Virus record (IMG/VR): IMGVR_UViG_2695420687_000014
Length of the DNA stretch: 3,488 bases
Direction: 5' to 3' (one strand)
From: a virus
Taxonomy: Duplodnaviria; Heunggongvirae; Uroviricota; Caudoviricetes
The notes below the pieces were generated by a model. The model searched no databases. It saw only the letters and a program-made list of their open reading frames with translations, and was not told the DNA's origin. Made by a program: the position numbers and the translations under genes. Below are positions 2,275 through 3,488 of this stretch, in pieces (the first letter of the stretch is position 1; every line of letters begins with the position of its first letter).

Positions 2275-2601
2275 TCATAACACCGTCGGACAACGCAAAT
2301 CGTAAATCAGCACGGACACAGAAAACGGCAGCTCCCCCTGAATCAGTTCTTCCCGCTCCGCAAGATCCGGATTCCGGTACAGCATCCCGGTCAGTCGCAT
2401 GGCAGCCCCCTTCATCCGGGTTAATGCCTCGCCCGGGATCAGCTCACCGTCCTCACGAATCACCTTATCCCGGCTGCCCTGAATGTAGGCCAGCAGCACG
2501 GCGGTAGCCTGACGAACCTTGTCCATCAGCATGTCATCATCCGCGTCATAGTCGACACGCAGATGTGCCTTGATCTCTTCCAGTGTCAGTAATGCCGTCA
2601 T
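2275..2601 (-). CDS. Phage head-tail connector protein (gp6-like, SPP1 gp15 family)
   Basis: 108-aa ORF. N-terminus MTALLTLEEIKAHLRVDYDADDDMLMDKV is the characteristic opening of gp6-like head-tail connector proteins. ATG at 2601-2599 overlaps the upstream stop as ATGA, with GGAGG 6 nt upstream. Confidence 0.8.
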   Translation of the reverse strand: MTALLTLEEIKAHLRVDYDADDDMLMDKVRQATAVLLAYIQGSRDKVIREDGELIPGEALTRMKGAAMRLTGMLYRNPDLAEREELIQGELPFSVSVLIYDLRCPTVL

Positions 2602-3488
2602 TTTCCGCCTCCAGCATCCCGTCCCCGTTTGGCAGCCAGCGTCCAGCCAGATGCATGCGCATCCCCCGGTTTATCGGCGGTCATACTGTTGCAGTGCCAC
2701 AGCGAGCCCCCCCACGTCACCGTATCGCCGGGGTGGTAGGTTTCACCGGCTCTGAACACTCCGCGGTAGAGCATCACCGGCAGGGAAAATGTTTTTTCCG
2801 TACACTGGCCACTGCTCTGCCGGATCACCACAGAGAACAACCGCTCACCCGTCATACTGACGTCAATATCCGCCACCCCGTCAACCAGGCATTCCCATCC
2901 CCGCATCCCGTGCGTTTTTTCATACGCCCGCCAGAGTCCTCCAAGGTGTGTGGCATACGTGCCCCGGGGAAAGGATTTTTGATCGTCAATGGCGGGGAGC
3001 ACTTCCAGTGCCGTGGCATCACGCCCGTCCTGCGGAGCCGGCAGGGCATTCACCGCCTCCAGAACCGCCTTCCGCAGAACATCGGGATCGTAGTCACGAC
3101 CATCACGCGGAACGGGAATATGGCTTACAGCCTCTTTCACCATCTGCTCAAGCATCGGACGCACATCATCGGGGGTGATACTTTTGCCGTCCGCCGGTAC
3201 CGGAATTCTCCCGACCGCATCATTCACCGCCTGCTTCAGTACTTCCGGATCGTAATCACGACCATCGCGGGGAGCTGGAATATGGCCCACTGCCTCCGCC
3301 ACCATCTGCTCAAGCATCGGACGCACATCATCGGGGGTGATACTTTTGCCGTCCGCCGGTACCGGAATATTCGCAACCGCATCATTCACCGCCTGCTGCA
3401 GTACATCCGGATCATAATCACGACCATCACGCGGTACCGAAATGGCCCCCACAGCGTCATCCACCATCGCCTGCAGAACCGGACGCAC
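2598..3488 (-). CDS. Repeat-containing phage structural protein of unknown function (C-terminal 296 codons; 5' end beyond the window)
   Basis: Open frame runs from the window edge at 3488 to TGA at 2600-2598. The leading M in the ORF track is a GTG at the edge, not a real start. Residues 1-170 are tandem repeats alternating IPVPADGKSITPDDVRPMLEQMVAEAVGH and IPAPRDGRDYDPEVLKQAVNDAVGR type units. Residues 171-296 form a non-repetitive Cys/Trp-containing domain. Translationally coupled to the connector gene. Function not recognised. Confidence 0.8.
   Translation of the reverse strand: MRPVLQAMVDDAVGAISVPRDGRDYDPDVLQQAVNDAVANIPVPADGKSITPDDVRPMLEQMVAEAVGHIPAPRDGRDYDPEVLKQAVNDAVGRIPVPADGKSITPDDVRPMLEQMVKEAVSHIPVPRDGRDYDPDVLRKAVLEAVNALPAPQDGRDATALEVLPAIDDQKSFPRGTYATHLGGLWRAYEKTHGMRGWECLVDGVADIDVSMTGERLFSVVIRQSSGQCTEKTFSLPVMLYRGVFRAGETYHPGDTVTWGGSLWHCNSMTADKPGDAHASGWTLAAKRGRDAGGGK
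2979..3488 (-). repeat. In-frame tandem coding repeats, 162-nt (54-aa) period, each built from two ~27-aa half-units; array continues past the window edge
   Basis: DNA 3138-3206 is identical to 3300-3368 (69 nt, offset 162); flanking repeat sequence is similar but diverged. At protein level there are about 6.5 half-units in the window, the last one (LPAPQDGRDATALEVLPAIDDQ) degenerate. Confidence 0.85.

Follow-up and report, generated by a model that had tools for sequence, protein, structure and literature searches.

A conserved carbohydrate-binding-module-like domain at the end of a stalked accessory protein encoded next to, or fused with, the phage portal

We analyzed a 3,488-nt stretch of tailed-phage DNA (Caudoviricetes; IMG/VR virus record IMGVR_UViG_2695420687_000014; hereafter the window), in which all long open reading frames (ORFs) are encoded by the minus strand and, as judged from the ORF list together with Pfam and PHROG matches, make up a head-neck-tail block of phage genes. 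This report concerns the 126-residue domain at the C-terminus of the most upstream of these ORFs, which directly precedes the gene of the head-tail connector Ad1. The domain opens up a large, mis-annotated family of portal-tethered accessory proteins. In the reading we favor, at a probability of about 0.5, it is the conserved knob of a probably trimeric stalked protein that is tethered to the portal by its C-terminal crown, which would put the knob on the inner side of the portal vertex. The protein is an accessory, dispensable part, because close relatives are without it, and it is not a host-specific receptor-binding tip.

The domain is encoded by exactly 126 codons on the minus strand at 2601-2978 (KSFPRGTYATHLGG...AAKRGRDAGGGK), followed by a TGA stop codon at 2598-2600. 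It is a non-repetitive, compact domain distal to a repeat stalk, as the initial annotation had described, with an array of 54-residue units encoded upstream at 3064-3468. A content of 3 Cys and several Trp and Gly had also been noted there; the count gives 3 Cys, 5 Trp and 19 Gly, with no repeats. Modeling with AlphaFold2 indicated a folded rather than a disordered domain. Based on an alignment of 47 sequences, the model contains ten beta strands at a mean predicted local distance difference test score (pLDDT) of 88.5, with low confidence only at the last ~8 residues (GRDAGGGK). The pLDDT of the domain was >90 also when it was modeled inside a 296-residue fragment. Both predictions are of monomers. 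The family-wide conserved core consists of a three-stranded sheet, followed by a module resembling carbohydrate-binding modules (CBMs) and by a KRGRD motif. Its invariant residues are G52, D53, T56, G59, S60, W62, H63, C64, T68, P72, W80, L82, K85, G87 and D89. Residues 1-32, which precede the core, are modeled by AlphaFold2 as three short strands (pLDDT 75-87). This extension is seen in enterobacterial-type members and a few others (P0140, P0079 and P0169), and is missing from most free-standing homologs.

The C-terminal ~50 residues have the fold of the CBM families 5 and 12 (CBM5/12), a small three- to four-stranded beta fold that is superposable on solved chitin-binding domains. The Pfam model CBM_5_12 (PF02839) matched domain residues 76-101 with 20.9 bits (E 3.6e-4), under its gathering cut-off of 26.2 bits. 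Relatives exceed this cut-off: P0140 scores 28.6 bits, and PF02839 is a precomputed assignment for fragments from Klebsiella, Salmonella and Enterobacter. The family appears to grade into CBM_5_12, with the window sequence as a sub-threshold member or neighbor. When the profile of the conserved core was compared with the sequences in the PDB, it matched Cis13 (All3316) of the Anabaena contractile injection system (E 2e-4) and a Pyrococcus chitin-binding domain (E 0.009). In a viral structure library, the best match was gp5 of EBPR siphovirus 3, followed by many phage proteins named 'collagen triple helix repeat'. The aromatic residues that stack on sugar are not conserved: in the profile alignment, the segment KAKYWT of the chitinase structure 2rts is aligned to hCdeeT of the family, where the acidic positions are variable. 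The canonical sugar-stacking surface is not evidently retained. Other aromatic residues of the domain (W89, W94, H95 and W112) are conserved. An internal duplication of the CBM motif was considered (RGTYATHLGGLWRA resembling GDTVTWGGSLWHC) and rejected, as the local alignment score of 26 was reached in 143 of 500 shuffles. DNA binding by charge is not supported, the core having a median net charge of -2 and an isoelectric point of 5.5.

To define the family, the 126-residue sequence was used as query in a word-index search, which returned 137 homologs at E<=1e-3, all of them, owing to a length bias, proteins of <=221 residues; full-length architectures came from an exhaustive profile search. 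With the core profile, 9,825 cluster representatives were found (4,982 at E<=1e-10), which fall into two classes. Class 1 proteins have the entire 87-position core in a single copy at the extreme C-terminus. Class 2 consists of giant proteins of 1,000-4,341 residues, which contain 8-38 tandem copies of the CBM-like half only and match Pfam CBM_5_12 outright (192 bits); these are probably long phage or bacterial fibers. For example, P0121 has 4,341 residues and 38 copies (others are P0122-P0132 and P0124), with the repeat unit W.G.Y......Y..GD.V.Y.GSSYIC...T.G..P.....W.LL. The window ORF belongs to class 1, in that it has the 87-residue core (GD.T..G S.WHC...T...P...W.L..K.G.D) at the extreme C-terminus, a repeat stalk, and a position directly upstream of Ad1 (alignments A1, A3 and A4). 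Among the PHROG families it matches phrog_2271 (E 1.5e-180), phrog_1289 (E 7.8e-153) and phrog_16748 (E 9.6e-96). Free-standing homologs from other phyla match phrog_1289 best, a family labeled 'portal protein'. NCBIfam gave spurious or collagen-adhesin matches only and contains no model of the family.

Class 1 proteins follow a common plan: a conserved N-terminal amphipathic helix (N-helix), a hypervariable stalk, often an element of the type IDRxGxLVxTLSDG, and the invariant domain. The C-terminal domain is the most conserved part of the family (alignments A1 and A3), unlike a variable receptor-binding tip. Two kinds of stalk are found. Gly-X-Y runs of at least 12 residues are present in 84 of the 119 class 1 representatives, and the collagen model PF01391 matches many homologs (E 1e-11 to 4e-32); P0200, for example, has 198 residues of Gly-X-Y. 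At least two PxPxxG[KR]D repeats, of the same kind as in the E. coli stalk, are present in 45 of the 119. The window ORF had no match to collagen (PF01391) in the Pfam scan and has helix-PxPxDG repeats instead. The two stalk types are interchangeable within the family. Since collagen stalks are obligate trimers and the stalk types can replace each other, the accessory protein is probably a trimeric rod.

The tandem array in the window has a period of 162 nt (54 residues), with 2.5 copies and 84% matches (TRF). AlphaFold2 models the stalk as alternating 13- and 16-residue helices joined by 12-residue linkers; at a pLDDT of 41-71, this monomer model is of low confidence and informative on the helix-linker periodicity only. 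In E. coli, the length of the accessory protein follows 245+54n, with forms of 245, 299, 353, 407, 461, 515 and 569 residues, and the copy number of the 162-nt repeat differs among near-identical E. coli prophages (IMG/VR loci L016-L113). In the window, the ORF runs past the edge at 3488, where the GTG 'start' is an edge artifact; the true start of the protein is ~60-110 codons upstream of the window. Many database proteins of the family are likewise N-terminally truncated fragments that begin within the repeats. Presumably, short-read assemblies break in the repeats, and the tandem stalk repeats explain the abundance of contig-edge fragments in the databases.

Distant homologs are free-standing proteins of 130-600 residues, and their genes lie between those of the portal and Ad1, usually overlapping the portal stop codon. 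This order was found in metagenomic phages (L003, L005 and L007), a Salmonella prophage (L010), Stenotrophomonas phage SOVA965 and Rhizobium phage RHph_X2_26, and the adaptor gene was the downstream neighbor at every free-standing locus examined (L003, L005, L007, L010, L014, L114, L008 and L117). Only the E. coli sequence among the 119 class 1 representatives is joined to the portal. The initial annotation had asked whether the domain occurs on its own or fused to tail fibers: it occurs in free-standing stalked proteins between portal and Ad1 or fused to the portal. Of the proposed fiber tip with a carbohydrate-binding head, the part that concerns the fold is in line with the CBM5/12-like module, whereas a tail-fiber tip does not fit a head-neck gene between portal and Ad1. 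We consider it barely credible that the domain is the receptor-binding tip of a tail fiber. The gene belongs to the head-neck block and precedes Ad1, Hc1, the gp10-like gene, the tail terminator and the major tail genes; in phage 2851 the tail-tip genes are >8 kb downstream. Fusion or coupling links the protein to the portal, and its distal domain is conserved, not variable. Such a tip would account for the general stalk-plus-knob shape and for weak matches to tail-fiber PHROGs, which are driven by collagen or CBM-like repeats, and for nothing else.

One locus reveals that the parts of the protein can be separated. In L008 (1097-2518), the portal-adjacent protein of 474 residues has the N-helix of the family, PxPKDGKDAD stalk repeats and the IDREGALVATLSNG element (IDREGALV), but its C-terminal ~110 residues are different. 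The same locus encodes a separate short domain-bearing protein with another type of N-terminus, several genes downstream and directly upstream of the head-tail adaptor gene, and in L117 a short domain-bearing protein likewise adjoins the adaptor gene. Thus, the N-helix and the stalk go along with the portal gene, and the domain at the C-terminus can be exchanged. That the N-helix and stalk stay beside the portal gene even though the C-terminal domain differs would support a tether to the portal.

We next consider the fusion found in E. coli. The DNA of the window is 97-98% identical to that of long-tailed Shiga toxin (Stx) converting phages of the Stx1a, Stx2c and Stx2a types from E. coli O157:H7 and relatives, the closest relative being Stx1a_1602. 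As the window ends before the junction of the portal and the accessory gene, the state of the junction was read in relatives. In phage 2851, a single ORF encoding 859 residues (L001:6796-9375) comprises an HK97-family portal domain, a low-complexity linker, Met455, a helical segment, the 54-residue repeats and the 126-residue domain. PF04860 covers residues 54-382 (E 6e-81) and solved portals align to residues 43-420. The best solved homolog is 9lbn, and the portal fold is complete by about residue 420, as aligned to the ends of 9lbn and 8cez. Neither PF04860 nor TIGR01537 matched the 296 residues of the window or the split 407-residue ORF. The 126-residue domain lies outside the portal fold and owes the name 'portal protein' to the fusion.

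The two states differ by one nucleotide in a run of G residues. With six (G6), portal and accessory protein form the single 859-residue ORF; the junction of phage 2851 reads TTC AGG GGG GAT ACT GAG AAA ATG ACG (L001 8140-8146). With five (G5), the genes are separate with an ATGA overlap. The sequence predicted beforehand for this state (...AGG GGG ATA CTG AGA AAA TGA, with the portal stop overlapping the ATG) was matched exactly in WGPS4, WGPS8 and Stx1a_1602. In G5 phages the portal ends with ...AMFRGILRK and a separate ORF starts with MTERELSII. G5 runs were also located in L012 (2043-2047) and in L015. Exact-pattern scans of IMG/VR found 57 G5 and 41 G6 contigs, and the downstream ORF was intact and domain-bearing in 34 of 39 G5 and 24 of 30 G6 contigs in which it was complete. 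Of 5,426 complete E. coli genomes, 1,245 contain the junction region, in a median of 4 and up to 26 copies. In Salmonella, the genes are separate with an 8-nt overlap, the portal gene ending with ...AGA GGA ATT ATT CAA AAT GGA TGA and the accessory gene starting at the overlapping ATG.

The G-run is located 11 nt upstream of the accessory ATG and resembles a Shine-Dalgarno sequence; for this reason, the free accessory protein may still be made from the internal ATG in the G6 state. In the G5 state, we speculate that a -1 P-site slip at the rare ATA codon (GGG-GGA-TA) would yield this fusion protein as well (FRGDTEKMTERE). A conserved programmed frameshift site was rejected, as the Salmonella junction has no G-run; slippage, if it occurs, would be confined to the E. 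coli lineage.

Could the fused or frameshifted ORF be a decaying remnant, that is, a functionless pseudogene of defective prophages? The database labels say so: PGAP and submitters call the G5 form 'frameshifted' or 'pseudogene'. RefSeq/PGAP has 'phage portal protein, frameshifted' for the G5 copy in NZ_CP017442.1 (L118 649-3233), submitters label L012 and L013 (698-3282) likewise, and in the Stx2 phages WGPS4 and WGPS8 the split gene is labeled as a pseudogene by the submitters. Moreover, many O157 prophages are defective. However, the split state is the norm of the family (118 of 119 representatives), the ORF is intact in most copies of both the G5 and the G6 type, the domain is conserved over thousands of clusters, and inducible Stx phages carry the ORF. 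We therefore regard decay as very improbable. The labels amount to a systematic annotation error: what is typical of the family, the split state, is taken for a frameshifted pseudogene of the portal, and 'portal protein' is passed on as a name to the accessory protein.

A second type of fusion was found in Moraxella phages. The 479-residue portal of phage Mcat9 contains PF04860 at residues 51-375, the conserved crown-end motif QQQNYSL.AL.RRD, a low-complexity linker of 24 residues and then the module, in a minimal form of 49 residues (YKGVFSSDVAYQVGDFVTRNGSLWHCKS...NWTLAVKKG) without a stalk. The module is present in 37 of the 120 closest portals (473-521 residues, down to 51% identity); ~83 are without it (421-446 residues), and in one of those examined the connector gene directly follows the portal gene. 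Among Moraxella-type fusions, the mean pairwise identity falls from 0.63 in the portal part to 0.52 in the module and 0.23 in the linker, which is disordered and has 19-60 residues. Because the identity of the module exceeds that of the linker, the module is kept by purifying selection while tethered to the portal C-terminus, with the whole device being optional. The Moraxella-type fusion is independent of that in E. coli. Independent fusions to the portal C-terminus point to the portal vertex, probably to its inner face.

These portals also bear on whether the domain is a pure folding nucleus, i.e. a ligand-free C-terminal element for trimerization and registration, like the T4 fibritin foldon or collagen NC1, with the function residing in the stalk or the N-terminus. 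This is unlikely, since Moraxella-type portals keep the module without any stalk and the module must do something beyond stalk folding. In addition, the stalk protein of L008 does without the domain.

In HK97-type portals, the C-terminal crown is turned toward the inside of the capsid (PMC10359639). A linker of 19-25 residues cannot reach around the portal wing and through the shell, which would place the Moraxella-type module at the inner face of the portal vertex. In the mechanism we propose for a portal-tethered protein, the N-helix would dock on the crown or be covalently joined to it, given that covalent fusion replaces docking twice and that the Moraxella forms dispense with both N-helix and stalk. 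The knob would nucleate trimerization and registration of the stalk, and would dock onto a partner common to very different phages, either a virion component or possibly a ubiquitous glycan. The site of action would be the portal vertex, most probably its inner side.

Several points weigh against this internal location. To our knowledge, all characterized proteins that combine a long stalk of collagen or segmented helices with a globular end are external fibers. The length of some stalks would roughly equal or exceed the width of a T=7 capsid (such as the Gly-X-Y stalk of P0200, or E. coli proteins of up to 569 residues), which is awkward inside. In L008 and L117, the genes of the short domain-bearing proteins adjoin not the portal gene but that of the adaptor, an external neck component. 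Trimer formation and crown docking are inferences, the models being of monomers. With its slightly acidic charge, the core is no obvious binder of DNA or of another internal ligand. If the internal ATG yields free protein in the G6 state, the fusion would be no proof of co-localization. Finally, literature searches on neck and head fibers with collagen, on Stx-phage virion proteomes and on phage SOVA965 gave no localization of the accessory protein, and no publication was found on this family, on portal-CBM fusions or on the G-run switch.

The main alternative, which we hold to be less probable, is an external neck whisker or head fiber: a free-standing trimer attached by its N-helix to the outside of the portal-adaptor junction, whose distal CBM-like knob would improve adsorption by binding a glycan that is widespread in cell-surface polysaccharide, mucus or the biofilm matrix. 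The G5/G6 run would then be an on/off switch of fiber display, with G6 sequestering the protein on the portal. A stalk with a knob, changing its length in unit steps, is the classic fiber plan, and external display would suit stalks that span or exceed a T=7 capsid, the position of the short members next to the adaptor gene, the dispensability of the gene among close relatives, and an acidic core without an obvious internal ligand. The fold matches chitin-binding modules as well as phage tail-fiber proteins, the half-module is repeated in the giant fiber-like class 2 proteins as a true Pfam CBM_5_12, and neck fibers with a distal CBM exist in cyanophage A-1(L) (PMC10966104). What tips the balance toward the portal-tethered reading is that the Moraxella-type module is kept under selection on a linker as short as 19-25 residues, from which the exterior is out of reach if the crown is internal, and that functional phages such as 2851 have the fused form. 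Across hosts (enterics, alpha-proteobacteria and Moraxella), no part of the protein is better conserved than the knob, which sets it apart from receptor-binding tips, and the canonical aromatic pair for sugar stacking is not conserved.

A more general hypothesis extends the portal-tethered reading, and we put it forward tentatively, as one we would sooner doubt than assert: HK97-like siphophages may widely encode a capsid-internal, crown-tethered trimeric stalk protein with a CBM-like knob, serving genome organization, retention or ejection. As an internal appendage of the portal, it would compare in function with the P22 barrel, SPP1 gp7 or the cores of podoviruses. In E. coli Stx-type prophages, the G5/G6 run, doubling as ribosome-binding site of the gene, would toggle between non-covalent and covalent attachment, and in the G5 state a low-level -1 slip could add a few fused subunits per portal.

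The remaining features of the window are listed in Table 1. The stop and start codons of the accessory ORF and of Ad1 share an ATGA overlap, by which their translation is predicted to be coupled. Such 4-nt ATGA-type overlaps join the neck genes in series (2598-2601, 1915-1918 and 1472-1475), suggesting that translation may be coupled from the accessory gene through Ad1, Hc1 and the gp10-like gene to the tail terminator. The C-terminal Ig-like domain of the major tail protein is matched by the Pfam families Ig_2, I-set and Ig_3 and by a Hoc-like PHROG; because of this domain, the tail tube is probably decorated by Ig domains. Two terminator-like hairpins with T-runs lie at the junction of the tail terminator and major tail protein genes on the minus strand, at 1087-1101 (CCCGCCGCGTGCGGG followed by TTTTTT) and 1128-1144 (AGGTCACGGTGTGACTT followed by a T-rich stretch), the second overlapping the end of the tail terminator ORF. 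Partial termination here could tune expression of the major tail protein. For the tail assembly chaperone, 124 residues are annotated in phage 2851; the ORF in the window encodes 113, and its stop codon is formed by bases 1-3.

Table 1. Coordinates of the features of the window (position 1 is its first letter)
Feature	Position	Strand	Basis
Accessory ORF, C-terminal 296 codons and stop	2598-3488	minus	phrog_2271 positions 567-859 of 859, E 1.5e-180
Stalk: 54-residue units (25 + 29 residues; helix and PxPxDG(R/K)D turn)	2979-3488	minus	TRF, AlphaFold2
Non-repetitive all-beta C-terminal domain, 126 residues	2601-2978	minus	translation and AlphaFold2
N-terminal extension, domain residues 1-32 (SFPRGTYATHLGGLWRAYEKTHGMRGWEC)	2883-2978	minus	alignment A1
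Family-wide conserved core, domain residues 33-122	2613-2882	minus	alignments A1 and A3; profile search
CBM5/12-like module, domain residues ~67-118 (VMLYRGVF..YHPGDTVTWGGSLWHC..KPG..GWTLAA)	2625-2780	minus	
ATGA stop/start overlap of accessory ORF and Ad1 gene	2598-2601	minus	TGA 2598-2600, ATG 2599-2601
Ad1, gp6-like head-tail connector	2275-2601	minus	PF05135 E 1.9e-7; phrog_40 E 5e-30
Head closure protein Hc1	1915-2265	minus	PF05521
HK97 gp10-like protein	1472-1918	minus	PF04883
Tail terminator	1131-1475	minus	PF11367
Major tail protein with C-terminal Ig domain	348-1064	minus	Pfam Ig families; phrog_158
Tail assembly chaperone	1-342	minus	PF06222

Upstream of the neck genes, the gene order in phage 2851 is terS, terL, an S78 protease-capsid fusion, a small ORF, portal and Ad1. 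This unusual order of head genes (TerL, S78 protease, major capsid protein, a small ORF of phrog_829, portal) was observed in L001, L003, L005, L010, L014 and L116. In the E. coli and Salmonella phages, the protease and the capsid protein form a single fusion ORF of 645-648 residues (L001 4647-6584). The metagenomic relative L003 has four additional genes between Ad1 and Hc1 (9554-10066 and neighbors), one of which encodes a 170-residue hexapeptide-repeat (left-handed beta-helix) protein. Searches of the PDB sequences with Ad1, the protease-capsid fusion and Hc1 identified no solved virion of a close relative, but only the nuclear magnetic resonance structure of an Hc1 homolog.

The analysis assigns a fold and a context to a domain that about one in four complete E. 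coli genomes contains, frequently in multiple copies, and that recurs in thousands of clusters of phage proteins without a meaningful name. The G-run switch and the Moraxella-type fusions constitute natural 'Rosetta stone' evidence for a stalked protein working at the portal C-terminus. If internal, the protein would be a previously unrecognized inner component of siphophage heads. If external, Shiga-toxin phages would have in it a neck whisker that can be switched by phase, and adsorption and host range might be affected.

How does the protein compare with known systems? The module itself is related to the CBM5/12 chitin-binding domains of Serratia ChiB, Streptomyces ChiC, Bacillus ChiA1 and Pyrococcus ChBD1, and to the cellulose-binding domain of Erwinia EGZ, to whose Pfam family the window sequence is matched below the cut-off (20.9 vs 26.2 bits). 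Where 2rts has the KYW aromatic pair after the second hairpin, the accessory family has variable acidic residues. Its module is preceded by an additional, family-specific three-stranded sheet and is joined to a portal-associated phage protein, not to a glycoside hydrolase. Cis13, from the thylakoid-anchored contractile injection system of Anabaena (PDB 7b5h), is the best match among PDB sequences by profile and has the motif FHGIWKPGQTYQKGDVVYYNHSLW. The matching part, Met1-His100, is the part modeled in the baseplate structure, suggesting that it is a docking element and offering a precedent for structural docking by this type of module. In contrast to the accessory protein, Cis13 takes a tail-fiber position and has a C-terminal membrane anchor, with neither a stalk nor a link to a portal.

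In overall plan, T4 fibritin, SPP1 gp12, PRD1 P5, Bacillus BclA and the A-1(L) neck fiber share an N-terminal anchor, a repeat stalk of polymorphic length and a conserved C-terminal globular domain for trimerization or binding; the neck fiber of A-1(L) has a CBM at its distal end. All of these are external, and none is encoded as, or fused to, a portal C-terminus. The closest functional analogy for an internal portal-tethered protein is provided by SPP1 gp7 and Mu gpF (MuF), whose genes directly follow the portal gene; these proteins bind the portal within the capsid and in some cases are fused to it. The likeness is one of genomic position and inferred portal association only: the proteins are unrelated in sequence and fold, and none of the Pfam scans of family members gave a match to Phage_Mu_F (PF04233). 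Unlike the accessory family with its invariant C-terminus, MuF proteins vary at the C-terminus, and they do not form stalked trimers. The P22 portal barrel is a C-terminal extension of the portal from the crown into the capsid interior, in which 12 helices form a coiled coil as an integral part of the portal. The G6 fusion and the Mcat9-type portals are analogous to this barrel, with the difference that the accessory extension is a separable gene product, ends in a beta knob, is optional and is probably trimeric.

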